Shown here: positions 2,724 through 44,092 of the stretch, piece after piece
Layout of the letters: each line of letters starts with the position of its first letter
How positions within the stretch are numbered: the stretch's first letter is position 1
Origin: a virus
IMG/VR virus record: IMGVR_UViG_3300031963_000013
Direction: 5' to 3' (one strand)
DNA: 64,000 nt
Made by a program: the position numbers and the translations under genes
The notes under the pieces: model-generated
What the model was told of the DNA's origin: nothing
The model's database searches: none
What the model saw: only the letters and a program-made list of their open reading frames with translations

Positions 2724-4046
2724 ATGGTTACAGAAAAACAGATACTCGAACTTGTGGAAGAGTACATAAAACAAAAACACGGCCAAAAGTCTTGGAAAGC
2801 AGGAGAAGATTGGGTGCAGTACGCAGGTCCGTATTTTGATTCCGAAGAATACGTTGCAGCAGTAAAAACCCTTCTTGGAGAATGGTTGGTTTTGGGAGCG
2901 GAAGCGATAAAATTTGAACGTAAATTCCCAAAGAAGTTTGATAAAAGTTACGGTCTATTGACTAATAGCGGTTCAAGCGCTAATCTTCTTATGATGTTAG
3001 CGATGACTTCTAAAAGATACAAGAACTTTCCGAAAGGCACAAAAGTAATTACGCCTATCGCAGGCTTTCCGACAACAATCAATCCAATACTTCAAGTTGG
3101 ATTTACACCAGTTTTCGTTGATATAGAGTTAGAGACACTTAATTTAGACCTTGATCAGGTGGAGCAAGCTTGCATAAACAATCCTGATGCAAAGATAATA
3201 ACTTTCGCTCACGTGTTAGGTAATCCTCCAAACATGAATAGGCTGATGGAGATTGTTAAGAAGTACAATCTAATACTGCTAGAAGACTGTTGCGATGCTT
3301 TAGGTTCCACTTACGAAGGCAAAGCTTTAGGTTCGTTTGGAGAAATGGCAAGTTGTTCGTTTTATCCTGCACACCATATCACAATGGGAGAGGGAGGTTT
3401 CGTAGCAATGAACGATCCACAGTTGGAGAGAATAGTGAGGAGCTTTAGAGAATGGGGAAGAGGTTGTTACTGCGTTGGAAAACAGAACTTACTTGAAAAG
3501 GGATCATGTGGTTGTAGGTTTAACAACTGGGTACCCAGCATACCAGACGAATTATTCGACCACAAGTACGTTTACGAAGAGATTGGTTATAACCTAAAAC
3601 CTATAGAACTTCAAGCTGCAATAGGGCTGGTGCAAATGAATAAATTGGAAGAGATAGGGCAGAAGAGAAAAGAAAACTATAAAAATCTGTTTAAAGCATT
3701 TGAGAAGTACAAGCAATATTTTCACTTACACGAAGCTCAACAAGGTGCAGACGTAGATTGGTTTGCTTTTCCTGTCACAGTAAAAGACGGAGCTCCATTC
3801 AAAAGATCAGACATTTGTAAGTTCTTTGAGTCAAATAAAGTGCAAACAAGACCGTACTTCGCTGGAAACGTTATGCTGCAACCAGCTTACGAAGGAATTA
3901 TGGATCCAAAAGAGGTCATAGAAAAATACCCTGTAGCAAGAAAAGTTACGACAGACACTTTTTTCTTAGGTACTTCACCAGTAATTAACAAAGAGAAAGT
4001 AGATTACATAGAATCTGTATTAGATAAATTTATAGAACAGTTATGA
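2724..4046 (+). CDS. rfbH: CDP-4-keto-6-deoxyglucose-3-dehydrase-like (RfbH/DdhC, DegT family)
   Basis: NSGSSANLL, EDCCDALGS and SFYPAHHITMGEGG (His in place of the Schiff-base Lys). Cys-rich WGRGCYC...CGCRF region. Confidence 0.9.
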   Translation: MVTEKQILELVEEYIKQKHGQKSWKAGEDWVQYAGPYFDSEEYVAAVKTLLGEWLVLGAEAIKFERKFPKKFDKSYGLLTNSGSSANLLMMLAMTSKRYKNFPKGTKVITPIAGFPTTINPILQVGFTPVFVDIELETLNLDLDQVEQACINNPDAKIITFAHVLGNPPNMNRLMEIVKKYNLILLEDCCDALGSTYEGKALGSFGEMASCSFYPAHHITMGEGGFVAMNDPQLERIVRSFREWGRGCYCVGKQNLLEKGSCGCRFNNWVPSIPDELFDHKYVYEEIGYNLKPIELQAAIGLVQMNKLEEIGQKRKENYKNLFKAFEKYKQYFHLHEAQQGADVDWFAFPVTVKDGAPFKRSDICKFFESNKVQTRPYFAGNVMLQPAYEGIMDPKEVIEKYPVARKVTTDTFFLGTSPVINKEKVDYIESVLDKFIEQL

Positions 4047-5026
4047 AAATTTGTTTTTTGACGGAGATGGGTTTAGAAGGCAAAGTTCCAAGCAATCACA
4101 CAAACATGAGGACAGAATTCGCTTGGATGTTTGCACTTGATGCTGATCACAGACACATAAGAAATTATCATAATGTTGTAGGATACGATCATGTTTTTAT
4201 TATATTCCCAAAAGGCGAAGTGTATCTTAACGCTGTAGGTGGAAAGTTAGTAGATAAGAAAAATCCGGTTAGCGATTTACTACATTCAGACTTCATAGAA
4301 GTATTAAAAAGCAACAACAAAAAGGTTCACTACGTTCAAGAAGGCCCGCACTGGTTATATAACGACTATGAATTAGCGGATCAAATACAGTTTTATAACA
4401 TGCTCTCTGGATGCGATTCTATATTCTCACACAACGAATCAGATGTACAGTACTATAGAGGCTTGCTTCCAACGAAACGAGTGCATGTGATGCCGACTTT
4501 AATGATAGAAAGCGTAATATCAAAAATACAGCAGAAGACAGAGGATAAGACGATAATCGGGGGAAACTTTGCTAGATGGTACGGAGGATTTGAAAGTTAT
4601 ATAGTAGCTCAAGAGTTTGAAGTGCCTATTTGGGGACAAACGTCCCATGCAACCAGAGACGGAGAGAGCCAATTAGTAAATTTACTCCCAAGAGTGATGT
4701 GGACTGACTGGATGATGCAGCTAAGTTCTTTCAAATATGCAGTACATTTGATGCCCACAGCTGCAGCAGGTACGTTTGGGTTAAACTGTGCGTACTTTGG
4801 CATACCGTGCATAGGAAACGAAGACGTAGATACACAGAGGTTGTGCCACCCCGATCTAGCAGTAAACGTCAAAGATATGAAAAAAGCCAGATCTTTGGCA
4901 AATAAGTTGAAGCAAGACGAGGGATTCTATGAACACTGTTCTAATTTAGCTATAACTAACTGCGAAAGATACTATAGTTTAAAACATTTTAACAACACAC
5001 TTAAAAATATATTACATGAACAATAA
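4043..5026 (+). CDS. Putative glycosyltransferase (GT-B-like)
   Basis: C-terminal AGTFGLNCAYFGIPCIG motif and cluster context. Confidence 0.55.
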   Translation: MKICFLTEMGLEGKVPSNHTNMRTEFAWMFALDADHRHIRNYHNVVGYDHVFIIFPKGEVYLNAVGGKLVDKKNPVSDLLHSDFIEVLKSNNKKVHYVQEGPHWLYNDYELADQIQFYNMLSGCDSIFSHNESDVQYYRGLLPTKRVHVMPTLMIESVISKIQQKTEDKTIIGGNFARWYGGFESYIVAQEFEVPIWGQTSHATRDGESQLVNLLPRVMWTDWMMQLSSFKYAVHLMPTAAAGTFGLNCAYFGIPCIGNEDVDTQRLCHPDLAVNVKDMKKARSLANKLKQDEGFYEHCSNLAITNCERYYSLKHFNNTLKNILHEQ

Positions 5027-5747
5027 ACATGTGTTAGTAATTACCGGTTGCGATGAAGCCATGCATTCAGTGCTAGATCTTACTATACCTTCAAAATTAA
5101 GATACACTCAAAAACATGGATACGACTTTAATGTGCTGAGATCTTTTAGATCATTTCCGCACATAGGTGTAGATGCTAAAAACCCTATCGGTTTAGGATT
5201 TGCTCGTACCATACATGTATTTCAAATGTTAGAGCACTACGATGTTGTTATGTGGATAGATGGAGACTCTGTTATCACGAACGATAATTTTACAATAGAT
5301 GATTTTATAAATGATCAACATACGATATATTTTTCTTACGATTGGCCTGTTGCTATGGACGGTAGTACTGGCCACGTTGGATTTAGTGGTGGTAATTTTA
5401 TAATAAAATCCACAGAACACGTTGAAGAATTATATAGTACATTTATAGAATATAGTAAACATTTCTTAAACGATCACGGAGCAGACCAAACGTGTTTAAA
5501 CGTAATACACAATAACACACCACTTAGAAAGCACTACGGATTGTTAGAACACAAATACTTAAACGCAGTGCCTGAGTTTATAACAAGAACTAGCGTGTGG
5601 CAAGCAGATCCAAATAGAACTGGTCCAAATAGGCGTTTTAGTATACCTTCTCCGTGGAATAAAGATTGTTTTCTTGCCCACTTAACCGGATGTAATACGG
5701 CTGACAGAATAGATTTACTACAAAACGAGTTCAAAGATTATTTGTAA
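5016..5747 (+). CDS. Glycosyltransferase, GT34/nucleotide-diphospho-sugar transferase-like
   Basis: SKLRYTQKHGY, VMWIDGD, DQTCLN and FLAHLTG motifs. Confidence 0.75.
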   Translation: MNNKHVLVITGCDEAMHSVLDLTIPSKLRYTQKHGYDFNVLRSFRSFPHIGVDAKNPIGLGFARTIHVFQMLEHYDVVMWIDGDSVITNDNFTIDDFINDQHTIYFSYDWPVAMDGSTGHVGFSGGNFIIKSTEHVEELYSTFIEYSKHFLNDHGADQTCLNVIHNNTPLRKHYGLLEHKYLNAVPEFITRTSVWQADPNRTGPNRRFSIPSPWNKDCFLAHLTGCNTADRIDLLQNEFKDYL

Positions 5748-5748
5748 T

Positions 5749-7398
5749 ATGAAACAAAATAAGTTCAAAATAATAATCGCGTCTTATAACAATGAAGATT
5801 GGGCATATTACAATATAGTTAGTGTGCTCAATCAAACTTATAAAAATTTTAATGTAGTTTATGTTGATGACTGTTCTACAGATAATACCAATTCAATAGT
5901 ATCTGATCTTATAAAAAATGATAATAGATTTAATCTTATAAGAAACAAAACAAATCTTGGAGCCGATGGAGGAGCAATATATAACTATATTAGATTTTAC
6001 GAATCGCTAGAAGACGAAGAGATATGTGTATCTATGTGCGGAGATGATTGGCTGATAGATGAAAATGTATTAGAGAATCTAAATAACTACTACAACAAGT
6101 ACGATGTTTGGATGACATACGGAGAATTCTATGTTTACGATGGGTCAGAGGATGTTTTAAAAGCCAATCCACAAAATACCCCATATCCAGACTTTGTGCA
6201 TCAATATAAGCTATATAGAAAAGACATATGGAGAGCAAGTCATTTATTAACTTTTAGGGGATTTTTAGCAAAAAAGATAGATCTTAATGATATAAAATCA
6301 AGATACAATAACAAGTGGTTTTATCATGCACCTGACTTAGCTGTTGCTTATCCGTGTTTAGAAATGTGTCCAAAAGAAAAGATAGGTGTTGTTGATTTTC
6401 CAACATATGTTTGGAATTCAAGCGAGCAGTGTCAAGTAAGAACTAGGCACAGAGAGTCTGAAGACAACATGAAATATGAAATCGAAATTAGAAACAAAAA
6501 ACACTACAAGGAGGGTTTAACTGGAGAAAAATTACCTCAGATAAACGCTATTGGTGGAAGTAGAGAAAACAACGATATACCAAAAGATTTTACTTATGTG
6601 TATAATATGCGTGATGGAGAATTTGATGCTGTCATAATACCTGATATGGAGATCATTAGATACATTGAAGGGCAAATATGCATAGACAAGAAGTGTCCAG
6701 TGATAGCTGATATACACGAACCTCCTTATTTGTTTGAGCAACAGAGAGTTTACGATACTGTATACAAAAACTATAAGATGTTTGATCGTATACTCACTTA
6801 CGATGAAAGACTACTAACACTACCAAACGCAGTATTCAGAAACGGAGGGTACGAATGTGTATTAAATAAAAGCGTACACACTGAAGAATATCCGACATTA
6901 TCAGACGCCAGTCTATATTCAATATATGATAAAAGTAAAAGCGTATCTATAATAAGTTCGAACAAAACATTTACGGATGGCCACAGATACCGCGTATCTT
7001 GCGTAGAATTAATAAGGCGTAACGATCAGAGTGTGGACATTTATGGAATGGGTTATAACCCAATAAATGGAAAATTGATCGGTTTAAAAGATTATAAGTA
7101 TTCTATCGCTATAGAAAACGGTGTATATAAAAACTATTTTACTGAAAAAATATTGGATTGCTTTTTAACAGGCACTATTCCAATCTATAGGGGATGTACA
7201 AACATTTTAGATTTTTTTAATCAAAAAGGAATAATTACTTTTGATACCCATGAAGAGCTTTTAGAAGTATTAAAAACAATAAGAAATGGTGGTTATGATA
7301 TAGACAAGACAATTATAGAGGAGAACTACGAATTGGCTTTGAAGTATCGATACGACAATGATAAGATATTTAATAAATACATAAAAGATTTAATATGA
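5749..7398 (+). CDS. Fused GT2 and GT10 (fucosyltransferase-like) glycosyltransferase
   Basis: N-terminal IIIASYN...VDDCSTD (GT2). C-terminal YKYSIAIEN...YFTEKILDCFLTGTIPIYRG (GT10 motif). Confidence 0.85.
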   Translation: MKQNKFKIIIASYNNEDWAYYNIVSVLNQTYKNFNVVYVDDCSTDNTNSIVSDLIKNDNRFNLIRNKTNLGADGGAIYNYIRFYESLEDEEICVSMCGDDWLIDENVLENLNNYYNKYDVWMTYGEFYVYDGSEDVLKANPQNTPYPDFVHQYKLYRKDIWRASHLLTFRGFLAKKIDLNDIKSRYNNKWFYHAPDLAVAYPCLEMCPKEKIGVVDFPTYVWNSSEQCQVRTRHRESEDNMKYEIEIRNKKHYKEGLTGEKLPQINAIGGSRENNDIPKDFTYVYNMRDGEFDAVIIPDMEIIRYIEGQICIDKKCPVIADIHEPPYLFEQQRVYDTVYKNYKMFDRILTYDERLLTLPNAVFRNGGYECVLNKSVHTEEYPTLSDASLYSIYDKSKSVSIISSNKTFTDGHRYRVSCVELIRRNDQSVDIYGMGYNPINGKLIGLKDYKYSIAIENGVYKNYFTEKILDCFLTGTIPIYRGCTNILDFFNQKGIITFDTHEELLEVLKTIRNGGYDIDKTIIEENYELALKYRYDNDKIFNKYIKDLI

Positions 7399-8363
7399 AA
7401 AAAATAGTATACGTTACAGGTTGTCTAGGTTTTATAGGATCTTACGTAACAAGGAAATGTTTAGAACTCGGTTGGTATGTTAAAGGAGTTGATAAGATAA
7501 CTTACGCGGCTAATAAAGATTTGCTTACTGAGTTTAAGAAAAATAAGAACTTTTCGTTTGTACACTGCGATATAAACGAATTGACTTTTCTTTACGATTG
7601 CGATTATGTGATAAACACGGCTGCCGAAACACACGTAGGTAATTCTATAATGAGTAGTTTAGAATTTGTAAAATCAAATATAGATGGCGTACACAATTTA
7701 CTTGAGTTAATAAAAAACTATAGAAGCGAAAATGGCAAAAAACCAGCGTTGATACATTTTAGCACAGACGAAGTTTATGGAGATATAGAAAGCGGAGATC
7801 ATTACGAAACAGACACGCTAAAACCTAGTAACCCATACTCAGCTACAAAAGCGGCCGCAGACATGCTCGTTATGGCTTGGGGAAGAACTCACAATATCCC
7901 ATACATGATTGTTAGACCTACAAATAATTACGGAATGGGTCAATATGTTGAGAAACTCATACCAAAAGCAATAAAGTTTTTGAATATAGGTAGGAAAATA
8001 CCTTTACACAATAACGGAGAACCCTATAGAAACTGGTTACACGCAGAAGATACTGCTACTGCAGTAATTACATTAATCGAAAAAGGAAAAATAGGAGAGA
8101 TATACAACGTAGCTGGTGGATTTGAACAACAGAATATAGATACTATAAAAAAGATAATTACAGAGTACGTAGAAATAGCAAACTGGCAAGACTTTTACGA
8201 CATAGAACATTACGTAGATTTCTCTTGCGACAGACCTGGTCAAGACGTACGCTACGCATTGAACGATGATAAACTAAGATCTTTAGGTTGGTCACCAAAA
8301 AAACAGTTTGATGCAGAATTAAAACATATTGTAAATTATTATAAGAACAAATTTGTATGGTAA
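7395..8363 (+). CDS. rfbB: dTDP/NDP-glucose 4,6-dehydratase
   Basis: TGCLGFIG, AAETHV, STDEVYG, PYSATKAA and DRPGQDVRY motifs. Confidence 0.9.
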   Translation: MKKIVYVTGCLGFIGSYVTRKCLELGWYVKGVDKITYAANKDLLTEFKKNKNFSFVHCDINELTFLYDCDYVINTAAETHVGNSIMSSLEFVKSNIDGVHNLLELIKNYRSENGKKPALIHFSTDEVYGDIESGDHYETDTLKPSNPYSATKAAADMLVMAWGRTHNIPYMIVRPTNNYGMGQYVEKLIPKAIKFLNIGRKIPLHNNGEPYRNWLHAEDTATAVITLIEKGKIGEIYNVAGGFEQQNIDTIKKIITEYVEIANWQDFYDIEHYVDFSCDRPGQDVRYALNDDKLRSLGWSPKKQFDAELKHIVNYYKNKFVW

Positions 8364-10123
8364 AAGTTAGTGATTTAGTGGCAGAGTTTCTGGTAGAAAA
8401 GAAAATACAGGTTGCTTTTGGAATAATAGGATCTGCAAATTCACACATATTTGATTCAATATCGGATAAAGGTTACACAAAAGTAGTGTACGTTCACCAT
8501 GAGCAAGCAGCAGTGATGGCAGCGGGGTCTTACTATAGGGCCACTGGAAAAATATCTGCGGCTATAGTTACTGCTGGAGCCGGATCAGCAAACGCGATAA
8601 CCGGAGTCATTAGTAATTGGGCTGATTCTATACCGTGTTTAGTAATATCAGGACAAGAATCCACAAAATATATAAAAGAGCATGCCAACTTAAGGATGAT
8701 TGGAACTCAAGGTTTTGATGTAGTTGAGATGGTTAAACGCGTTACAAAGTATGCTAAGACTGTTATAGATAAGAATGAAATAGTCAAGTGTCTTAACGAA
8801 GCATGTAGTTTTGCGCTTAGTGATAGACACGGTCCTTCATGGATAGATGTTCCTTTTGATATACAAAGTGCATTTGTAAATAAAGAAGAACTTGAAGTGT
8901 TTGAAGAACCCAAATCAGATCTTACAGCTGTAAGCGTTAAAGAATTACTAGATTTGTTAAAAACCTCAAAAAGACCAGTAATATTAGGAGGATACGGCAT
9001 AAAGGCGTCAAATAGTCAAAAAGAATTCGATAGTCTAGTAAGATCATACAAAATACCCGTCTTACTATCTTGGTCAGCTATAGACGTACTATCCCACGAT
9101 CACCCGTATAACTTCGGAACTTCTGGACTTTACGGACAGAGGCGAGCTAACTTCATATTACAGAATTGTGATCTATTGATAGTGCTTGGTAGTAGATTGG
9201 CTTTACCTCAAACGGGATACAACATAGATAACTTTGCACCAAACGCAAAAATTATTATGGTTAACAACGACCGAAATGAATTAGATAAGTACGCAAATAG
9301 ATACGACATAAAGATACCATTCGACGTTAAGCAAATAATCTCATGTCTTTTAGCGATTAAGTATGATAATAACATCTCAGAATGGTATGACAGGTGCGTA
9401 AAGTATAATTTAGATTTTCCAATAATAGAGGAGACCCACAAAATAGATAACGAGAGTTTTGATAATTCGTACGTGTTGATTAACAAACTCTCTGATTTGA
9501 TGTGTAAAAACGACATCCTTGTCATCGGTCAGGGAACTCCTTTACCGTGTGCACACCAAGCTTTCAAAATAAAAGAAGATCAGATAGCTTTTGCATCCAA
9601 CGGTTTGGGAGAAATGGGACACGGATTACCATCAGCAGTAGGTGCAGCTTTAAGCGGAAAAAAAGCCGTGTTACTAGATGGAGATGGAAGCATGATGATG
9701 AATTTACAAGAGCTACAAACAGTGGTAGGGTATAATCTTCCTATAAAAATAATAGTGTTTAACAATGAGGGATACTTATTCATCAAGCACACTCAAAAAA
9801 TGCTTTTTAATGGGAGATACACAGGCGTTGATTTAAACACTGGGGTCACTTTACCGAAGTTCGAGAAGATAGCAAATGCGTTTGGTATACCGTACTTTGA
9901 CTCTAAATCATCTTCTTTAGAGGATTTCATAAACCACGATGGATATGCCATATACGAGTGCCACATGAATCCAGAGCAAGATTTGATACCAAAAGTAAAA
10001 GGCGTTCCCGTAGCAGACGCTATATTGGCACCTCCGTTAGAAGAGATGTCACCCCTATTAACAATACAAGAGATAGAGAATAATATGATAAACATTAATG
10101 CACTTTCTTATAAATTAAGATGA
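8357..10123 (+). CDS. Thiamine-pyrophosphate-dependent enzyme (acetolactate synthase/YerE-like)
   Basis: HHEQAAVMAA and the GDGS...NN TPP-binding motif; located in a sugar cluster. Confidence 0.85.
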   Translation: MVKVSDLVAEFLVEKKIQVAFGIIGSANSHIFDSISDKGYTKVVYVHHEQAAVMAAGSYYRATGKISAAIVTAGAGSANAITGVISNWADSIPCLVISGQESTKYIKEHANLRMIGTQGFDVVEMVKRVTKYAKTVIDKNEIVKCLNEACSFALSDRHGPSWIDVPFDIQSAFVNKEELEVFEEPKSDLTAVSVKELLDLLKTSKRPVILGGYGIKASNSQKEFDSLVRSYKIPVLLSWSAIDVLSHDHPYNFGTSGLYGQRRANFILQNCDLLIVLGSRLALPQTGYNIDNFAPNAKIIMVNNDRNELDKYANRYDIKIPFDVKQIISCLLAIKYDNNISEWYDRCVKYNLDFPIIEETHKIDNESFDNSYVLINKLSDLMCKNDILVIGQGTPLPCAHQAFKIKEDQIAFASNGLGEMGHGLPSAVGAALSGKKAVLLDGDGSMMMNLQELQTVVGYNLPIKIIVFNNEGYLFIKHTQKMLFNGRYTGVDLNTGVTLPKFEKIANAFGIPYFDSKSSSLEDFINHDGYAIYECHMNPEQDLIPKVKGVPVADAILAPPLEEMSPLLTIQEIENNMININALSYKLR

Positions 10124-10824
10124 TAGACTTAACACTACAAACAATACCATCGCCATTAGTATCTGAATTGCTTACACACTCTAATTTAGACGGAGTTCTT
10201 TTGGATACTGAGCATGGACACTTTAACAACGAGACTCTTTACTCGTGTATACAGGTAATTACTTTAAGCCATAAAAAGTGTTTTGTACGATTTACAGATC
10301 TAAATAAACAATTGGTGAGAATGTGTTTGGATGCTGGCGTTGATGGAGTCGTATTTTCTACTGTTAATGACTACGTGTACGCGAAAGAAATAATAGAATA
10401 CTGCAAATACCCTAATCAAGGAGGAAACAGAGGAATAGGACTTGTGAGAGAAAATGGATGGGGCAAACACAAGTTGGGTAACAATAAACCAACAATAATA
10501 ATTCAAGTAGAAACAGCAAAAGCGATTGGTAATATACATGAACTATTAAAGTTATCTTCAGAAGTAGATTATTATTTAGTTGGACCATACGATATATCTT
10601 CAAGTCTCCTAAAACCAGGAGAATTTGAAGATGAAAACTTTGTGAATAAAATGGACTTGATTTATAAATGTATTCCGATAAGCAAATTAGGTTTATTTTT
10701 ACCAACCAAACAAGACATAGAAAGATTTAGAAAGCAAAAAAAAGATAGACCGAATTTATTAATTTGGGGAATGGACACGGACTTTATTTTACAATCCTTA
10801 AAAGATATACAAAATGGTAATTGA
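10120..10824 (+). CDS. HpcH/HpaI aldolase family protein
   Basis: LDTEHG, LDAGVDG, YPNQGGNRG, QVET and VGPYDIS motifs. Confidence 0.85.
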   Translation: MIDLTLQTIPSPLVSELLTHSNLDGVLLDTEHGHFNNETLYSCIQVITLSHKKCFVRFTDLNKQLVRMCLDAGVDGVVFSTVNDYVYAKEIIEYCKYPNQGGNRGIGLVRENGWGKHKLGNNKPTIIIQVETAKAIGNIHELLKLSSEVDYYLVGPYDISSSLLKPGEFEDENFVNKMDLIYKCIPISKLGLFLPTKQDIERFRKQKKDRPNLLIWGMDTDFILQSLKDIQNGN

Positions 10825-11569
10825 TTTAAAACAAAGCTTAGATAACTTAGGCAAAAATTGGGACGTCATAGGCATGAAACAATCTTTCGAAGACGAAGGT
10901 GTTTTACTGAATGACGTTGTTGCATTTAAAAGAGTAACAGAAATATGCGGACTACAATCTTTTGTAAAGATAGGTGGATGCGAAGCTAAGAGCGATCTTT
11001 ATAATTGCATAAGGATGGGCATAAACGGAATAATAGCGCCTATGGTAGAAACGCCTTTTGCTTTAGACAAGTTTATAACAATGATGAAAGATTATCCAAA
11101 CAGAGCCGATTCTTATATTGTTATAGAAAGCAAAACTGCCTATGAAAACATAGATAGTATACTAGAAAATGGCCGCGGTAACCTGAAAGGGATAATTGTT
11201 GGCAGATCAGACTTTTCTAAGTCATATAATCTAAATAAGTCAGAGGTAGACAGCGGTTTCATATACGACAAGGTAGAAGACATATTGACAAAGGCAAAAA
11301 AGTATAATTATATGACTACCATGGGAGGTAACGTATCAACAAGAAGTACTAAATTTATAAAAGATGCTTTCTCAAAAGGTTTGTTAGATAGAATAGAAAC
11401 AAGAAACGTTGTTATAGGTTTAAATAAATCTAACATAGTCAACATAGATAATAACATACAAAAAGCTCTTGACTTTGAAATAGAGTGGTTACAATATAAA
11501 TTATCAATATCATCGAAGCTTAGCGCCGATTATTCAGAAAGAATAGGTTTATTAAAAAATAGAAAGTAA
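10814..11569 (+). CDS. HpcH/citrate-lyase-like aldolase family protein
   Basis: KIGGCEA, IAPMVET, IES and VGRSD motifs. Confidence 0.7.
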   Translation: MVIDLKQSLDNLGKNWDVIGMKQSFEDEGVLLNDVVAFKRVTEICGLQSFVKIGGCEAKSDLYNCIRMGINGIIAPMVETPFALDKFITMMKDYPNRADSYIVIESKTAYENIDSILENGRGNLKGIIVGRSDFSKSYNLNKSEVDSGFIYDKVEDILTKAKKYNYMTTMGGNVSTRSTKFIKDAFSKGLLDRIETRNVVIGLNKSNIVNIDNNIQKALDFEIEWLQYKLSISSKLSADYSERIGLLKNRK

Positions 11570-11570
11570 A

Positions 11571-12731
11571 ATGCAAGAAAGATACAGCACGCTTCAAAGA
11601 TTATTAAACGAAGAGAAATGTTTTAAACTTATTTGCGGAGCGGGAAATGAAGATAAGCATCACGTTAAAAAACTAGCGTTTGTGTATACATTAGCAGGCG
11701 CTAAAGTCTTGGACGTTTCAGCTAATGTTGAGGTTGTTAAATACGCAGGACAGGGCATAGACATGGCCTTCCAATACGCAAATAAGCTAGGCATAACTCT
11801 AACAACAAGACCTTTTATTATGGTTAGTATAGGAATGCCTGGCGATCATCATGTTAGAAAGTCTTATATAGATCCTAACACTTGTGTATCTTGCGGCCTG
11901 TGCGCTCCCGTGTGTCCCACAAACGCAATACCATTTGGCTTTGAAAAGAATCTCGAACACTACATAAATCTTGGAGGTAGTTATGAAGTAGAAGATCAAA
12001 GTAAAGAGATAGTGATAAAAGATTTGTGTATTGGTTGTGGAAAGTGTAGTAATATATGTCCAAAGGATTATATAATATCGTATAGACATAACGAAAGACA
12101 GCTGAGAGAGTTACTCCCTAAATGTATGGAAGCGGGAGCAGAAACGTTTGAATTACATGCTGCTGTTGGAGAAGACGAGATTACACTTAAGGAGTGGCAA
12201 TTAATAAGTGAAATAAATCCGAACAACTTTAATTCTATGTGTTTGGATCGATTGAACTTGGGGAATTTGAATTTAGAACACAGAATAGAAGAGGCAAAAA
12301 GAATATCAAACAACAAGATTATCATTCAAGCTGATGGATATCCCATGAGTGGAGGAGCAGATGATTATAACACAACGCTTCAAGCTATATCTACTGCAGA
12401 CGTTATAAATAAAAAGTTTAATATTAGATTAGACAAAAAATCAGTTAAAAAGGATGGAGACAAAGTTATAACAAATAAAGTTTATAGAGCTCACGGTCAC
12501 CATCAAGGAGTTTATATAGTCTTATCAGGAGGTACAAATTCTCATAGCAAAAAATTATCAGAACTCGTTGGTGTTAGATGTAATGGAATAGCTATAGGTA
12601 CATTTGCAAGAAATATTATCGAACAGTACATAGACGATGTAAACTTTTACGAAGACGATAATCTAATAAAATCAGCTTACAAAATAGCAAAAAAATTAGT
12701 AACAGAAAATATAGGAGAGATATATGAATAA
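11571..12731 (+). CDS. LdpA-like 2x[4Fe-4S] protein
   Basis: FKLICGAG N-terminus, two CxxCxxCxxxCP motifs, QADGYPMSG and LSGGTN. Confidence 0.75.
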   Translation: MQERYSTLQRLLNEEKCFKLICGAGNEDKHHVKKLAFVYTLAGAKVLDVSANVEVVKYAGQGIDMAFQYANKLGITLTTRPFIMVSIGMPGDHHVRKSYIDPNTCVSCGLCAPVCPTNAIPFGFEKNLEHYINLGGSYEVEDQSKEIVIKDLCIGCGKCSNICPKDYIISYRHNERQLRELLPKCMEAGAETFELHAAVGEDEITLKEWQLISEINPNNFNSMCLDRLNLGNLNLEHRIEEAKRISNNKIIIQADGYPMSGGADDYNTTLQAISTADVINKKFNIRLDKKSVKKDGDKVITNKVYRAHGHHQGVYIVLSGGTNSHSKKLSELVGVRCNGIAIGTFARNIIEQYIDDVNFYEDDNLIKSAYKIAKKLVTENIGEIYE

Positions 12732-13101
12732 GATTTATAAAATAGCGGTAGACTTTGACGGAACGTTGTGTGAATACGCTTTTCCAAAAATAGGAGAACA
12801 GAAGGATCATCACATAAAGCTAATGAAAATTCTTATAGAATTAAGAAAAAAAGGGCATAAATTAATACTGTGGACGAATAGAGGCGATAATGAACAGTAT
12901 CCTGTCTTGAGTGAAGCTATCGAGTGGTGTAAAAATCGTGGATTAGAATTTGATGCAATTAATCAAAATCTGCAAGATCAAGTAAAATTATCGGGGCCTA
13001 GTCCCAAAATTATGGCGGACTATTATATAGATGACAAAGCTTTACAATTCAGCGATGAGGAAACCAAAATAAAAACAATAGAAGTTTTATCTACTCTATG
13101 A
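12724..13101 (+). CDS. HAD-superfamily phosphatase
   Basis: AVDFDGTL, LILWT and YYIDDK motifs. Confidence 0.85.
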   Translation: MNKIYKIAVDFDGTLCEYAFPKIGEQKDHHIKLMKILIELRKKGHKLILWTNRGDNEQYPVLSEAIEWCKNRGLEFDAINQNLQDQVKLSGPSPKIMADYYIDDKALQFSDEETKIKTIEVLSTL

Positions 13102-14018
13102 ATATCATTATAACTGGGGGGAACGGTTTTTTGGGATCTAGCATTGTCAGAAAATTTTTAAACAGTAATCATAACGTACTTGTGTTTTCTAAAAACTCAA
13201 ATAACATATCAGATATATTACACAAGATAAAGTATATACAATCAGACAATGATGATCTTATTTTACACAAAGATGCCATAAGCACTTTTCAACCACACGT
13301 AGTAGTTCATTGCGGTTGGTTCGGGGGAAATAGCCACGCTGACATTAACGATATGAATCAGTTCCATCGTAATGTACCATCAAGCATAAAACTAATAGAA
13401 ATTATAAACGAATTAGAAAACAAGCCAATGTTTGTGGGTTTTGGAAGCTTTGCTGAAAATGGAAAAATGCGATATCAAATAAGCGAACAAGATTCAGAAA
13501 ATCCAACCAATTTATATGGACTTTCAAAGTTAACTTTTAAGAATTATAGTAAAATGCTCTGTGATTCATATGGAATAGATTGGACTTGGATAAAACCCTG
13601 TTACATATACGGACCGAATGATGTTAAGACCAGACTAATACCGAGACTGATTAGTAAGTTTATAAAACACGAAGACGTAGTATTAGATGAATGTAAGTCT
13701 ATCGTTGATTACTTGTACATAGACGATTTCTCAGAGTATGTTTACCAACTAATAACAACAAGATGTTTGGGAGTGTACCACTTATGTTCAGGCAATCAAT
13801 ATAAGCTCAGAGATATAGTCGTATTGATAAAAAAACTAACTAACAGTAAGAGTGCTGTAATTTTTGACAAAACTAAAAATAGAGATTCTGCATTTGATTA
13901 CGTGTGCGGAAATAACCATAAACTAAAAAGCGTGTTAAATGTAGAAAATAATGTAAATTTAATAGAAGGAATAAAAAAAACTATAAATTATGAAAGATCT
14001 TGTAGTAATAAAGGATAA
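13098..14018 (+). CDS. NAD-dependent epimerase/reductase (SDR)
   Basis: TGGNGFLG and YGLSK motifs. Confidence 0.85.
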   Translation: MNIIITGGNGFLGSSIVRKFLNSNHNVLVFSKNSNNISDILHKIKYIQSDNDDLILHKDAISTFQPHVVVHCGWFGGNSHADINDMNQFHRNVPSSIKLIEIINELENKPMFVGFGSFAENGKMRYQISEQDSENPTNLYGLSKLTFKNYSKMLCDSYGIDWTWIKPCYIYGPNDVKTRLIPRLISKFIKHEDVVLDECKSIVDYLYIDDFSEYVYQLITTRCLGVYHLCSGNQYKLRDIVVLIKKLTNSKSAVIFDKTKNRDSAFDYVCGNNHKLKSVLNVENNVNLIEGIKKTINYERSCSNKG

Positions 14019-14637
14019 TAAATGGGTATGGCCAAAGAACGATGTAACTAGTTGGCCCGGTCAAAACGATAGCGTAAATTTAGTAGATTATGTTTTGCCT
14101 TATGTTAAAAACAAAGGTGTCATGGTACAAGCGGGTGGTAACTGTGGATTCATATTAAGCCAATTCGTACCTCACTTTAAAGCAGTATACACATTCGAAC
14201 CAGATCCTGTTAACTTCTATTGTTTGAGTCAAAACGTAACTTCTCCAAATGTCATAAAAATGCAAGCTTGCGTAGGAAACAATAAAAAAACCGTACAGAC
14301 ACAGCAGCTGATTAGAGAAGACAAGCCAGTCGATATAGGAGGCGTGCATATTTCTGGAGAGGGTTATACCCCAACCATTAGAGTAGACGATTTGAATTTG
14401 CCAGCTTGTGATCTTATACAGTATGATGTTGAGGGATACGAATTAGAGGCTTTGTTGGGTACCTTAGAAACTATTAAAAAGTATAAACCAACTATATGTT
14501 TAGAATTTTGTGAAAAGTGGTTAAATAGGTATGACACTAATACAGAAAGCGTATTAAGTCTTATGAAAGACTTGGGATATGTTGAGGTTTCTAGTATAAG
14601 AGTTGATAAGATATTTTTACATAAAGATAATTTATAA
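13990..14637 (+). CDS. FkbM-family methyltransferase
   Basis: QAGGNCG, YTFEP and DVEGYE motifs. Confidence 0.85.
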   Translation: MKDLVVIKDNKWVWPKNDVTSWPGQNDSVNLVDYVLPYVKNKGVMVQAGGNCGFILSQFVPHFKAVYTFEPDPVNFYCLSQNVTSPNVIKMQACVGNNKKTVQTQQLIREDKPVDIGGVHISGEGYTPTIRVDDLNLPACDLIQYDVEGYELEALLGTLETIKKYKPTICLEFCEKWLNRYDTNTESVLSLMKDLGYVEVSSIRVDKIFLHKDNL

Positions 14638-14638
14638 G

Positions 14639-15925
14639 ATGAATTCAAAAATAACTTTCGCTACAAACACCGGGCCCGGCACTTTAGAATACACTAAACT
14701 ATTATTGAGATCCCTTAAAGAAAACTTAGATAACAAAGAGCACGAGATACTTGTGTTTATAGACTCTGACAACGATGGCACTTTGGATTATTTAAAATCC
14801 ATTAAAAAAGACTTTCATGATTTAAAGATCGTTACTCACAAAGTTAAACCAGTAGTAGGACCAGAAAGAAATTGCAATCTTATCGCAGAACTAGCTAAGC
14901 ATGATATAGTCAGTTATCTCCAAAGCGATATGGTAGTATCAAAACACTACGACACAAACGTGCTAAGTAGTTTAGAAGAAAATACTATAATGAGTTCTAC
15001 AAGAGTAGAACCCCCTCTTCACGAACAATCAGACAAAACTTTTACTGCTAATTTTGGTTTGAATCCAGAAGAGTTCAACATGCGTGCCTTTTTAGAATAC
15101 TCAGAAAAAGTAAAGTCGAACAAAAGCTTAGACTATTTTTTTGCCCCCTATACGTTTCATAAAGACACGTGGAATAAAATGGGTGGATATGACACCGTAT
15201 TCAGAAGATCGAGGTGCGATTCAGATTTAGTGCAAAGGTGCATGCAATTGGGAATAAAATTAAAACAAACATTTTCTGCTAATGTATATCATTTCACGTG
15301 CGTATCTTCTAGAGGCAAAAACTGGTTCGATTCGGAAAACAAAGAAGCTCAGAACAGGGTTTTAATGCAAAACAAAGCAGACATGGTTGAATTAAGAAGA
15401 TTTGTTAGGAAGTGGGGATCTTTTAATCACGGAGAGTCTATATTATTTAAGTACGATATAGACTTATTTATTCACTCTGAAGACGATTCACTACTTAGTT
15501 TAGCTGTAAATTTAGAACCCTATTTTAGTAAGGTGTATTTAATGAATCCTAACCTTTTGGAAAAAGCAAAAAATACGCAGCAAATAGATTTAGAGCATGA
15601 GTACGCAAACAATCTTTACGGATTCTCAAATGAAGATTGGCAAGCATCTAAGAAGTTCTACAACAAAACTGACTACAACCAAATATACAAATTAACTGAC
15701 AGCCACAACAAATACAATGCGTGTTTATACTTACATTCAACAGAAAATTTAGATTATATCTATCAAAACATACAGCATTTACACAAACTAATAGATGAAG
15801 TAGAGGAATTAGGAGATTATGAGTTCGGATCCGCTGTATTATCGATTAAAAACAAAGTGCTTGTTCAAAACGATTTGTGTGTGAAAAATCCAGAATTTGA
15901 TATGAGCTTATTAACTATCGAATAA
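14639..15925 (+). CDS. Glycosyltransferase family 2-like protein
   Basis: FIDSDNDGT, LQSDMV, MGGYD...DSD and VYHFTC motifs; start moved to ATG 14639. Confidence 0.75.
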   Translation: MNSKITFATNTGPGTLEYTKLLLRSLKENLDNKEHEILVFIDSDNDGTLDYLKSIKKDFHDLKIVTHKVKPVVGPERNCNLIAELAKHDIVSYLQSDMVVSKHYDTNVLSSLEENTIMSSTRVEPPLHEQSDKTFTANFGLNPEEFNMRAFLEYSEKVKSNKSLDYFFAPYTFHKDTWNKMGGYDTVFRRSRCDSDLVQRCMQLGIKLKQTFSANVYHFTCVSSRGKNWFDSENKEAQNRVLMQNKADMVELRRFVRKWGSFNHGESILFKYDIDLFIHSEDDSLLSLAVNLEPYFSKVYLMNPNLLEKAKNTQQIDLEHEYANNLYGFSNEDWQASKKFYNKTDYNQIYKLTDSHNKYNACLYLHSTENLDYIYQNIQHLHKLIDEVEELGDYEFGSAVLSIKNKVLVQNDLCVKNPEFDMSLLTIE

Positions 15926-32199: not shown

Positions 32200-32249
32200 G
32201 ATCGGGTACGGTAAGCCGGTGGGCGCGGGTTCGATTCCCGCCCCGATCG
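32200..32249 (+). ncRNA. Minimal 50-nt tRNA-like element (acceptor stem plus T-arm)
   Basis: GATCGGG/CCCGATC acceptor stem and perfect GCGGG-TTCGATT-CCCGC T-arm, with only 18 nt between them. Confidence 0.65.
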
Positions 32250-39770: not shown

Positions 39771-39871
39771 AGTCAGGTGGCGAAATTGGTAACGCAAGCC
39801 TTCACAGAGCAACTGAACCGCAAGTGAGTGAAGCACGTAGGTTCTTACAGGTTCGAATCCTGTCCTGACTA
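39771..39871 (+). ncRNA. tRNA-like element with variable core (copy 2)
   Basis: AGTCAGGTGGCGAAATTGGTAACGC ... ACAGGTTCGAATCCTGTCCTGACTA. Confidence 0.75.
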
Positions 39872-40087: not shown

Positions 40088-40185
40088 AGTCAGGTGGCGG
40101 AATGGTAGACGCAGTTGATTACAACCCCGAGGTAAAATCTTGGCGCAAAAAGAGTTGATTACAGGTTCGAATCCTGTCCTGACTA
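40088..40185 (+). ncRNA. tRNA-like element with variable core (copy 3)
   Basis: Same constant arms with an unrelated middle. Confidence 0.75.
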
Positions 40186-40405: not shown

Positions 40406-40512
40406 AGTCAGGTGGCGGAATTGGTGTCAATTAAGTTACTCAAAAGGTTGTAAAGCTTGAATGTGGTACATTCTGTTGCTACTTAATATAGGTTCGAATC
40501 CTGTCCTGACTA
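40406..40512 (+). ncRNA. tRNA-like element with variable core (copy 4)
   Basis: AGTCAGGTGGCGGAATTGGT ... AGGTTCGAATCCTGTCCTGACTA. Confidence 0.7.
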
Positions 40513-41631: not shown

Positions 41632-41786
41632 TAAATTATGACAAAAATAGAAATTAAATTAAATGTAGTCGCTGGCTCAACAGAGCATCATAAGTTGATA
41701 GCGTTTTTGCACGACAACCTTTATGAATTTTCGTCAAAGCCCAATGGCACAAAACCCCTTGTTATGTGTCAGTTAATATTATTAAA

Positions 41787-41903
41787 ATGGTAACAATTAA
41801 AACAAAACACGGAGAGTTTAAATACAAAGATTGGCAATGGAACTTGGCTTGGTTACTGGTCTTTTTATGTGGAGTAGCTGTTGGAATTATAGGTGGTCTT
41901 TAA
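41787..41903 (+). CDS. 38-aa membrane peptide (cassette 1)
   Basis: MVTIKTKHGEFKYKDWQWNLAWLLVFLCGVAVGIIGGL; the stop abuts the site. Confidence 0.55.
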   Translation: MVTIKTKHGEFKYKDWQWNLAWLLVFLCGVAVGIIGGL

Positions 41904-42010
41904 TGGCACATAACGCTTGGCGGCTTTGCGAAGTGGGTAGAAAAGGCAGCTTTTGCCAAACCCGTGTTATGCGTTCGGGCGGTATTTGAAAACGAATTAA
42001 ATTTTAAAAT

Positions 42011-42544
42011 ATGAATAGTAAAATAATCAGCTTTGCAATAGAAGCCCACAACAAAGTAAACCACCTGTATGATGGCAAACCTTATTCCGTCCATTTGTCA
42101 ATGGTTGCACATTATGCAGTAAAGTATATTGATGCAATACCTCAACAATGCTGGGGAACTGTATTAAATGCTGCATGGTTACATGATACTATTGAAGATT
42201 GCAGACTTACTTACAATGATGTAAAAGAAGTTGCAGGGTATGAAGTTGCTGAAATCGTTTACGCTTTAACAAACGATAAGGGTAAAAACAGAAAAGAACG
42301 TGCTGGCGAAAATTATTACAAAGGTATTCGTGAAACAGCTTGGGCAAAGTATGTAAAGTTATGTGATAGGCTTGCTAATGTAAAATATTCAGTTGATACC
42401 AATTCTCGAATGTTGGAAGTTTACAGAAAAGAAAATGCAAGTTTTTTAACTGGTTTAATGTCGGGCAGTTCTGATGCCTTAATTTATAAATACCCGTTGG
42501 AAGAATTAGACACATTGCTTTATGGCGTGTCAAAGGTAGCATGA
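42011..42544 (+). CDS. HD-domain hydrolase, small alarmone hydrolase/Mesh1-like (cassette 2)
   Basis: PYSVHL, AAWLHDTIED, ALT and VKLCDRLAN motifs. Confidence 0.8.
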   Translation: MNSKIISFAIEAHNKVNHLYDGKPYSVHLSMVAHYAVKYIDAIPQQCWGTVLNAAWLHDTIEDCRLTYNDVKEVAGYEVAEIVYALTNDKGKNRKERAGENYYKGIRETAWAKYVKLCDRLANVKYSVDTNSRMLEVYRKENASFLTGLMSGSSDALIYKYPLEELDTLLYGVSKVA

Positions 42545-42607
42545 CCACCAACGTGGTAGCATTGTTTTTGTGCTGATATTTTTTAACTAAAAACTCAATT
42601 ACTTAAT

Positions 42608-42982
42608 ATGGATAATAGCAATTCAAAACTTGAAGGTACTTCCGAAAGCCAGCATAAGAACAATGCAATGTTACCTGCCGTTTCTGATATGGAGTATATT
42701 TTATGTGCAGCAATTTGGTTTGATGATGGTGAGCAATATGAGCATCAGCCTAAAAATATTACTACTGGGCTTGTTTTTTGCGGCTATAGACACGGATGTA
42801 TTTTTCAGCAGATAGGTGGCACGATGGGAGAAAGGAAACAGCTCGGTATTTATGAAAAGGAGCAGGGCTTTTTGACGAATAGAAATCGTTTTGTTGATAG
42901 AGAAGAGGCCGCAAAAATTGCATTACAGGCGAACCAAATTGCAGAACCATTACTTAGGCTATTCAGCGAGGATTTATACTAA
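42608..42982 (+). CDS. Hypothetical phage protein (cassette 3; start uncertain)
   Basis: ILCAAIW...GYRH...QGFLT..NRFVDREEA...LFSEDLY. Confidence 0.7.
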   Translation: MDNSNSKLEGTSESQHKNNAMLPAVSDMEYILCAAIWFDDGEQYEHQPKNITTGLVFCGYRHGCIFQQIGGTMGERKQLGIYEKEQGFLTNRNRFVDREEAAKIALQANQIAEPLLRLFSEDLY

Positions 42983-43099
42983 TGTTCGCAATGGCAGTGT
43001 AACGTCAGGTATTTGTGAAGGCGGCACGAATACCCTTTAAATTAACCGCAAGTGTCCAGCCGCTTGCACAAATACCCTTGTTATAGGGCGTTTATTATT

Positions 43100-43414
43100 A
43101 TGTCAGGAGGAAGATTTGATTATACACAATATCACATCAACACTATTGCGGATAGTATTGAAAGTGAATTAGAACGTCAGGGCAAAGAAAAGCCTAAAGA
43201 CGAATTGTATTTTGATAAGGAATACTTAGAAAAATACCCAGAAGAAAAGTATTACTATATTCATCCATTAGAGGTGCAAAATGAAATGCGAAAAGCTATC
43301 AAAATACTTCGTCAGGCTTCAGTCTATGCCCAACGAGTTGATTGGTATTTGTCTGGGGATGATGGAGATGAAAACTTCTTAAAGCGTTTGAAGGCTGAAT
43401 TAAATGCCCTATAA
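43100..43414 (+). CDS. Hypothetical phage protein (cassette 4)
   Basis: MSGGRFDY...RVDWYLSGDDG; the stop TAA lies inside CTATAAC. Confidence 0.75.
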   Translation: MSGGRFDYTQYHINTIADSIESELERQGKEKPKDELYFDKEYLEKYPEEKYYYIHPLEVQNEMRKAIKILRQASVYAQRVDWYLSGDDGDENFLKRLKAELNAL

Positions 43415-43482
43415 CGGATAGGTATTACTGCCGCCTGTGAATTGGCAGTGCAACAGTATTTAACAATTAAACAGTTTACAAT

Positions 43483-43695
43483 ATGCAAAACAGTACAGAA
43501 AAGAACGTCAGCACAGGTGGAAGTAATACCAATGTTATACGCCGTTTGTCACGATGGCTAAAAATTAGAATGTTAAAGACAAAGATGTATAACCTTGATT
43601 GCGATATGATGTTTTTTGCAATCCCGTTTTCGCAGTATGAAAAAGAAATGGAAGCGTACCAAAATGAATTAGAGTGCTTGTCAAATGGCGTATAA
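43483..43695 (+). CDS. Hypothetical protein (cassette 5), started within the upstream hairpin loop
   Basis: ATG in the loop reads through GTT; the stop lies inside GTATAAC. Confidence 0.55.
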   Translation: MQNSTEKNVSTGGSNTNVIRRLSRWLKIRMLKTKMYNLDCDMMFFAIPFSQYEKEMEAYQNELECLSNGV

Positions 43696-43771
43696 CGTTT
43701 TGCAGGTTGCTTTAGTGGCGACCTTAACAGATAAACTTGATTAGAATTACAAACTTTAAATAAACAAAGAT

Positions 43772-43975
43772 ATGTCAAAAGAAAACGAAACTAAGCCATT
43801 GAAGCAACCTGATGTTAGCAGTAGTGCGGATTACGAGGGATTTTACACTCATTTAAAAGAGTATGAAGAAAATGGAATATCCACAAGTTTTAAAGACTTG
43901 GTAAGGTTGGCAAAACAATACAATTGTGAAATACCAAAAGTGGTAGATGGAAAACTTGTGTTTAAAACGATATAG
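43772..43975 (+). CDS. Hypothetical protein (cassette 6), started within the upstream hairpin loop
   Basis: The only ATG is in the loop; reads through the arm (KPLKQPDVSSS). Confidence 0.6.
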   Translation: MSKENETKPLKQPDVSSSADYEGFYTHLKEYEENGISTSFKDLVRLAKQYNCEIPKVVDGKLVFKTI

Positions 43976-43988
43976 CATTACTAATAAT

Positions 43989-44070
43989 GCCCCGTTGGTG
44001 AAATTGGTAGACACACCAGACTTAGGATCTGGTGCCGAAAGGTGTGAGAGTTCGAGTCTCTCATGGGGCA
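43989..44070 (+). tRNA. tRNA-Leu(TAG)
   Basis: CCAGA-CTTAGGA-TCTGG anticodon arm and class II variable arm. Confidence 0.92.
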
Positions 44071-44092
44071 CAAAACTTTAAATAAACACAAT

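Follow-up and report, generated by a model that had tools for sequence, protein, structure and literature searches.

In a 64,000-nucleotide stretch of the virus record IMGVR_UViG_3300031963_000013 from IMG/VR (this whole stretch is hereafter called the window), positions 41761-43988 of the + strand hold six small units with a single open reading frame (ORF) each, designated A to F, which are parted by elements running from an initial AAC to a terminal GTT. We consider it likely that this region represents six gene cassettes forming an orphan array, which derives from an integron-like, phage-borne system of site-specific recombination. An integron-like cassette array had been proposed here in an earlier reading of the sequence alone (hereafter the original prediction), and this proposal is now supported by a covarying family of sites, by arrays linked to a recombinase gene and by cassette differences between related phages. 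The layout that had been described, with six single-ORF units and AAC-to-GTT elements of 57, 123, 82, 124 and 123 nt, was confirmed in the sequence, as was the placement of two stop codons within TAAC, which are those of the D and E ORFs (43412-43414 and 43693-43695). Furthermore, an inverse core site and a core site (xxxAAC...GTTxxx) were found at all five junctions. The coordinates of all units and sites are collected in Table 1.

A covarying family of folded sites

Four of the five elements in the window form stems of 17-22 bp that enclose loops of 33 or 72-75 nt. Across the entire 64 kb, no long-loop inverted repeats ranked above these stems, which were found at the array only and which bear out the previous statement that inner stems are present and differ in sequence. 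Apart from their cores, the hairpins within the array are mutually unrelated in sequence. When folds were compared with those of shuffled sequences, site B/C yielded a z-score of -2.55, and site A/B, with a z-score of 0.04, folded no better than shuffled sequence. On the + strand, the transition-type mismatches in the window stems were all G:T (two of them in site B/C) and none was A:C.

A hairpin scan of IMG/VR loci that were fetched via neighbouring genes revealed the same architecture in several phage contigs, with up to eight hairpins in a row. In these contigs, the elements consisted of xxxTAAC, GGTT, a stem of ~20 bp, a loop, the return stem, a T and GTTAxxx. The overall anatomy of the sites can be described as xxxTAAC, a spacer of 4-6 nt, a stem of ~17-20 bp that is free in sequence, a loop, 1-3 nt and GTTAxxx, where the loops fall into length classes of about 22, 34, 65 or 72 nt. 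To describe this family, two covariance models were built exclusively from sites of other phages' recombinase-linked arrays, with the window sites excluded: model R1 comprises 39 long-loop sites and model R2 comprises 45 short-loop sites. TAAC and GTTA were invariant across the 39 and 45 aligned sites. In the R1 alignment, 17 of the 19 stem pairs vary on both sides, and 96.7% of the stem cells are paired, as compared to 36-45% over the whole structure with the partners slid. One G:U pair is invariant in this alignment. This wobble (G:T in the DNA) involves alignment columns 28 and 137 in all 39 long-loop sites, and the four strong window stems share it near position 13. The family stems are continuous and free of bulges, and their asymmetry arises from G:T wobbles; the invariant wobble may serve as a mark of strand or register that replaces the extrahelical bases of classical attC sites.

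Model R1 recognised site E/F with 74 bits (E 6e-13), site D/E with 66.9 bits (E 1.8e-11) and site B/C with 38.1 bits (E 1.3e-5), and model R2 recognised site C/D with 38.6 bits (E 1.6e-5). The match of R2 to site A/B was marginal at 21.7 bits, with an E-value of 0.058 when the whole window was searched and of 0.006 for a search of 7 kb. All five matches were located on the + strand, and there was no credible match elsewhere in the 64 kb. This showed that the window sites belong to a structured, covarying family. Rfam, searched over the window at gathering thresholds, returned tRNAs only, and a blastn search of the array region against GenBank phages returned tRNA-Leu matches only.

The strand that folds could be assigned from the wobble pairs. 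Among the stem cells of 231 family sites, read on the sense strand, 3959 were Watson-Crick pairs, 535 were G:T and 35 were A:C. The folding strand is accordingly the sense strand, and the bias of 535 G:T over 35 A:C fits the folding of the classical 'bottom' strand once the polarity described below is taken into account. At one point this sense-strand bias was regarded as evidence against an integron mechanism, an argument that was dropped when the array ends showed inverted polarity.

The units also carry a signature of cassettes, as their two ends are complementary to each other. On the score that we used for this property, random pairs average 4.8. Across 162 family units, the complementarity between a unit's own start and end averaged 9.3, as compared to 4.9 for the composite site. 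Within the window, units D and E each scored 14 (with composite-site scores of 7 and 4, respectively). For unit A, whose TAAC lies at 41911-41914, a hand count gave ~10, with 10 of 11 positions complementary including one G:T, and unit C scored 5 ungapped and ~12 when one bulged base was allowed. The original prediction had stated that the unit ends are complementary to their own start and not to the downstream GTT site; this holds for A, C, D and E, with F degenerate and B failing. A G:T pair recurs at unit position 11 throughout the family, and the same was seen in window cassettes C, D and E.

In addition, the long loops frequently contribute to the coding sequence. An ATG that reads through GTT was held by 77 of the 125 long loops (GTT being an in-frame codon for 59 of these 77), as compared to 5 of the 78 short loops. 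The same is observed in the window, where the loops of sites B/C, D/E and E/F contain the ATG codons of the C, E and F ORFs at 42608, 43483 and 43772, respectively, and where GTT is a codon in frame of the E ORF. For the C ORF, alignments with homologues in other phages start only at residue 21-29, that is, 3′ of GTT. The short-loop site C/D bears the family motif TTTAAATTAACC in its loop.

Recombinase linkage, polarity and junctions in related phages

A Pfam search of two array-bearing contigs identified a tyrosine recombinase of 266-267 aa just downstream of each array. With this recombinase as the query, we retrieved 80 IMG/VR loci (L105-L184) at 55-100% identity, on contigs of up to 362 kb. 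These relatives are large freshwater phages in which the sites make up co-oriented arrays. Same-strand sites were present within 10 kb directly upstream of the recombinase gene in about 60 of the approximately 66 loci that have upstream DNA, and almost none were present downstream. Model R1 gave 318 matches in 75 of the recombinase loci, and among the 300 matches listed all were on the + strand. Locus L167 departs from the pattern of nearly all others in having a second group of family sites 7-10 kb downstream of the recombinase gene, at ~8900-11600.

The recombinase contains the Pfam domains Phage_integrase and Phage_int_SAM_4. It scored below the curated cut-offs both for XerA (195 versus 220 bits) and for the integron integrase model TIGR02249 (161 versus 265 bits, in two stretches). 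Its closest relative in the Protein Data Bank (PDB) is Pyrococcus XerA (4a8e; E 4e-37), and as compared to VchIntIA (2a3v) it is ~48 residues shorter where IntI has its extra segment. Judged by these sequence comparisons, the enzyme is Xer/IntI-like and lacks the IntI insertion.

Directly before nearly every recombinase gene, the last cassette ends as xxxTAAC^TATNATATATA (the caret marks the junction) and is free of a hairpin. The conserved sequence TAT(T/C/A)ATATATA follows directly after TAAC, ~45-60 nt 5′ of the start codon of the recombinase gene. Arrays of near-identical phages differ by whole cassettes. In loci L108, L121 and L122, the common blocks are 99.9-100% identical and their order differs; one cassette that is distal in L108 is duplicated in L121 beside the recombinase gene, where it ends exactly as ...GTGTATAAC^TATTTTATATAAAC. 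A second case is provided by the cultured Polaribacter phages Freya_1 (MT732463) and Freya_10 (MT732472), the recombinase of which is 36% identical to the query. The two phages have identical flanks around a 4.9-kb block of ~12 small genes that is located right upstream of the integrase gene. Following ...ACAAC, this block opens with a spacer, then a hairpin and then GTTA; its terminus reads ...GCTAAC. The sizes of Freya_1 to Freya_10 span 43,978-48,920 bp, and the loci of Freya_1 and Freya_10 were catalogued as L185-L188. Moreover, when homologous cassette bodies were found in different arrays, the upstream hairpin was conserved together with the body and the downstream hairpin was not (two of two informative pairs).

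Since arrays end hairpin-free at TAAC and insertions begin right after AAC, the cassette is composed of a spacer, a hairpin and GTTA...ORF...TAAC. With a crossover at the TAAC box, each hairpin thus belongs to the downstream ORF, often carrying its start codon. The original prediction had placed recombination at G^TT of the + strand, which is not supported by arrays that end in TAAC^TATNATATATA and by insertions that start after AAC. It had also suggested that related phages be inspected for cassette changes exactly at G^TT: near-identical phages do differ by whole cassettes, and the junction lies at AAC. When the platform is read on the minus strand, the order is that of a classical integron, with a divergent integrase gene, attI, G^TT and the cassettes. 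The inversion concerns the cassette ORFs, which run antisense to the classical attC polarity.

We infer from these junctions that strands are exchanged inside AAC of the TAAC box or immediately thereafter, on the sense strand. In the mechanism that we envisage, the 266-aa recombinase would bind the folded sense strand, so that single-stranded DNA would be its substrate, and it would perform the exchange at this box. The exchange point would mirror the classical G^TT and would correspond to AA^C on the folded bottom strand of a classical site. The cassette would be excised as a circular intermediate and would be re-inserted at the enzyme-proximal site. With the ORFs inverted, the hairpin would travel with the downstream ORF, and the long loops would supply its start codon.

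Conceivably, the hairpins and the stems that close the units could instead be RNA structures of the sense transcript, with a role in processing, stability or translation control and no involvement of DNA recombination. Such a role would be in line with the non-Watson-Crick stem positions being almost all G:U on the sense strand, with start codons inside loops and with an array that is static across samples. It would leave unexplained, however, why the arrays hold a constant position beside a tyrosine recombinase gene, why array ends of the form TAAC^TATNATATATA are hairpin-less, and why reordering and insertion between near-identical phages occur exactly at AAC. We therefore regard RNA structure as the sole function of the hairpins as quite improbable, while an RNA role could exist alongside recombination.

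Some genes of the window array have homologues in other contexts. The arrays of L108 and L121 include a homologue of D among their cassettes. A viral contig of 5 kb (L002) has a family site at 4701-4835 that removes the last 10 codons of a D homologue, and a DNA methyltransferase gene, with its ATG in the hairpin loop, comes next. In an unrelated 190-kb phage contig (L016, 5688-6312), a D homologue is directly followed by a C homologue, which is the reverse of the window order, and this pair is hairpin-free.

The array in this phage

The phage is large and T4-like and was found in freshwater metagenomes. In agreement with the original prediction, there is no integrase gene in the window: a tblastn search for the recombinase family found nothing, a hidden Markov model (HMM) of 66 sequences gave a best E-value of 0.13 over six frames, and a Pfam scan of 21 large window ORFs detected no integrase. 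The attI-like motif TAACTATNATATATA is absent from the window, and none follows cassette F. Instead, a tRNA-Leu gene occupies the place where relatives carry the attI-like site and the recombinase gene. Along a 109.8-kb metagenome contig, ~30 kb beyond the end of the window were covered, and we found T4-type structural genes and no recombinase gene in this part. At the other border of the array, cassette A has a degenerate upstream hairpin, where the putative site at 41694-41770 scored 10.2 bits (E 1.7) with the family covariance model.

The array region was detected at 94-100% of sampled words in 20 sequencing runs from 15 studies, mostly of freshwater, dated 2017-2025. The phage was not present in two raw-read runs that were examined. 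An exact 36-nt pattern had no match in IMG/VR or in metagenome contigs of the Joint Genome Institute (JGI), which means little, as identical contigs were found otherwise. Variation of cassette content at the AAC core was seen in relatives and not in this phage.

Several findings weigh against a cassette system, or against its operation in this phage, and they were taken into account in our assessment. Regarding the sites themselves, the ends of unit B are not self-complementary (score 3), site A/B and the end of unit F are decayed, and the sense-strand bias of the wobble pairs would fit RNA structure equally well. Homologues of C and D in most other phages are found without hairpins, so the genes themselves are not tied to the system. 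As for the enzyme, neither a recombinase gene nor an attI-like site was found within ~95 kb of contiguous genome, and the argument for a role of the recombinase in array movement comes from its position in the relatives. With respect to mobility, no recombination event was seen for the window's own cassettes. Six contigs from as many samples are 100% identical over a 3-kb region spanning the array and differ elsewhere, and contigs from two further runs (X18 and X20) show neither differences from the array nor joints at cassette borders, although such contigs drop rare variants and are uninformative on rare circles.

The original prediction had further assumed that the cassettes can be shuffled by a recombinase supplied in trans. 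For this phage the assumption is unproven, given six identical contigs and the lack of an enzyme gene or attI-like site in ~95 kb. Because the array is invariant, ends at a tRNA gene and is accompanied by no attI-like site or recombinase gene that we could find, it is most likely either a relic or a store that can be moved only by an enzyme from elsewhere in the genome or from a co-infecting phage. This particular array is probably inactive. Being enzyme-less and invariant in the population, it represents a natural control that shows what such sites look like once they are no longer, or only rarely, used.

In X18, a 90%-identical copy of the E/F hairpin (43693-43832) is located on another contig of 1089 nt (depth 13.9), and in X20 three other contigs cover part of this hairpin at a higher depth than that of the phage. 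This site is therefore common to other genomes in the X18 and X20 samples. Locus L190 (~11525-15836) represents a strain variant of the phage that has, as compared to L189, a longer ThyA (413 versus 356 aa) and different genes thereafter, while the upstream array is identical.

Relation to known systems

The reading of the region as an array of integron-like cassettes invites comparison with classical integrons, which comprise IntI, attI and attC, such as the class 1 and Vibrio chromosomal integrons. In common with these, the phage family has arrays of mostly single-ORF cassettes, and its sites are folded single strands with AAC/GTT cores and stems that are conserved in structure and not in sequence. 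In both systems, a composite site takes its core flank from the neighbouring cassette (as reflected in the scores of 14 for window units D and E, with B failing). The order of a divergent integrase gene, an attI-like site and the cassettes, as read on the minus strand, and the insertion at the enzyme-proximal site are likewise shared. In contrast to classical integrons, the recombinase of the phage family, at 266 aa, is Xer-like and lacks the IntI insertion (I2 segment). The stems have no extrahelical bases and carry fixed G:T wobbles instead, the pairing of the R-box reaches 10-15 bp, and the ORFs are inverted, with each hairpin located 5′ of its own ORF, the start codon of which it may hold. 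The carriers, moreover, are large phages of a virulent type, and the window is devoid of the enzyme and the attI-like site.

The closest published work describes clusters of attC sites lacking integrases (CALINs), together with a few integrons, in phages, where IntegronFinder and HattCI served to call the sites and IntI1 recombined them (PMC9892861; Qi et al. 2023). Like those clusters, the window presents attC-like sites and small cassettes without an integrase gene nearby in the phage. A CALIN is taken to be at least two clustered sites without an integrase; here we found five sites in 2.2 kb, as recognised by family-specific and not by classical attC models. DNA methyltransferase cargo occurs both in the published set and in the related array of L002. 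The family described here differs in that its relatives possess a recombinase of their own and in its polarity.

It could accordingly be argued that the array is an ordinary CALIN, with classical attC sites that stem from a bacterial integron and are recognised by the IntI of the host. The geometry would fit as regards the AAC...GTT cores, the variability of the stems, the spans of 57-124 nt and the cassettes with one ORF each, and there is a precedent in virulent phages, some sites of which are recombined by IntI1 (PMC9892861). This is nevertheless very unlikely in our view, since the stems lack extrahelical bases, the ORFs have an orientation opposite to the classical one, and the family travels with its own recombinase that has no IntI insertion. 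In addition, model R1 gave no match on the published CALIN-bearing Polaribacter phage P12002L (PMC9892861).

Another system of relevance is that of the promoter-early stem-loops (PeSLs) of T4-type phages, which Arbiol et al. (2010) reportedly described as conserved in sequence and which are thought to act by homologous recombination. There, too, stem-loops that bear expression signals flank small accessory genes of T4-like phages, and these genes are shuffled between relatives. Unlike PeSLs, the array hairpins have no sequence in common beyond their AAC/GTT cores, their stems covary, and a tyrosine recombinase is tied to them. A related explanation would be that the hairpins are miniature repeats of the miniature inverted-repeat transposable element (MITE) or repetitive extragenic palindromic (REP) type, or PeSL-like joints for homologous recombination, which have spread between genes, so that the units would not be cassettes at all. 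The phage is T4-like, the same hairpin recurs with ~95% identity and different flanks in many phages, and the homology between loci L006 and L040 stops right after TGTTAT, all of which would be in keeping with such repeats. They would, on the other hand, not be expected to yield hairpins that are mutually unrelated in sequence within one array, unit ends that pair with each other and not across the site, or arrays that are polar and tied to a recombinase, and we give this explanation hardly any weight. Ends of the IS200/IS605 type and REP elements had been considered as separate candidates and were rejected, as the hairpins are not alike in sequence and are not accompanied by an HUH enzyme.

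Finally, the exchange of modules by Xer and dif (XerA, or XerC/D with pdif) resembles the cassette system of the phage family in that the recombinase is nearest to XerA and in that short sites bound the modules. The dif-type sites, however, are short double-stranded palindromes with a spacer and not strand-biased hairpins of 60-140 nt. In the full-text literature, we found no description of the family of recombinase plus array.

Integrons are held to need the extra domain of IntI, which reads the bulged bases of the folded attC site, and they have been treated as elements of bacteria and, lately, of archaea. The phage arrays follow the site logic of integrons while having a recombinase without the IntI domain, sites without bulges and inverted cassettes. 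This would make it possible to test how single-strand recombination originated from Xer-type enzymes, and whether phages use site-specific cassette exchange to shuffle small accessory genes. More tentatively, and with somewhat less than even confidence, we propose that these arrays represent a separate lineage of integron-type gene capture, which would occur in virulent phages that infect aquatic bacteria, both T4-like phages and other large ones. It would be characterised by a short Xer-like recombinase without the IntI insertion, bulge-free hairpins marked by G:T, inverted cassettes that carry their start codon, and orphan arrays that would be mobilised in trans upon co-infection.

Table 1. 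Cassettes, sites and right border of the array in the window (all on the + strand)
Feature	Position	AAC-to-GTT span	Stem	Loop	ORF	Remarks
Cassette A	41761-41914				41787-41903 (38 aa)	start GTTATGTGTCA, end TGGCACATAAC
Site A/B	41906-41975	57 nt (41912-41968)				weak or decayed
Cassette B	41915-42552				42011-42544 (177 aa)	HD-domain phosphohydrolase; terminal CCAAC
Site B/C	42544-42679	123 nt (42550-42672)	17 bp, 42559-42575 / 42650-42666	74 nt		
Cassette C	42553-43003				42608-42982 (124 aa)	hairpin, then GTTACCTGCCGTT, ORF, then AATGGCAGTGTAAC
Site C/D	42995-43089	82 nt (43001-43082)	18 bp, 43008-43025 / 43059-43076	33 nt		short-loop class
Cassette D	43004-43415				43100-43414 (104 aa)	hairpin, then GTTATAGGGCGTTTA, ORF, then TAAATGCCCTATAAC
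Site D/E	43407-43543	124 nt (43413-43536)	19-22 bp, 43418-43439 / 43512-43533	72 nt		
Cassette E	43416-43696				43483-43695 (70 aa)	hairpin, then GTTATACGCCGTTTG, ORF, then CAAATGGCGTATAAC
Site E/F	43688-43823	123 nt (43694-43816)	17 bp, 43703-43719 / 43795-43811	75 nt		
Cassette F	43697-43988				43772-43975 (67 aa)	hairpin, then GTTAGCAGTAGTGC, ORF; degenerate end GCATTACTAATAA
tRNA-Leu (tag)	43989-44071					ARAGORN and Rfam; right border of array

For two of the cassette ORFs, matches to known families were obtained. The ORF of cassette B matched Pfam HD_4 (E 4e-6) and phrog_990, a metal-dependent phosphohydrolase (E 1e-30). The ORF of cassette C matched phrog_839, and PF26092 (T4_Y16D) was among its precomputed matches.

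Two further features of the window were noted outside the array. Three tRNA-like genes of 98-107 nt, at 39771-39871, 40088-40185 and 40406-40512, have common 5′ and 3′ ends and unrelated middle inserts of 25-35 nt; they scored 32-43 bits with the Rfam tRNA model and were not called by ARAGORN, and a partial tRNA match was located at 32200-32249. Lastly, a sugar-modification block at 2724-15925 encompasses genes for a DegT-type aminotransferase, two GT2 glycosyltransferases, two epimerase/dehydratases, a thiamine pyrophosphate (TPP) enzyme and a 4Fe-4S protein.

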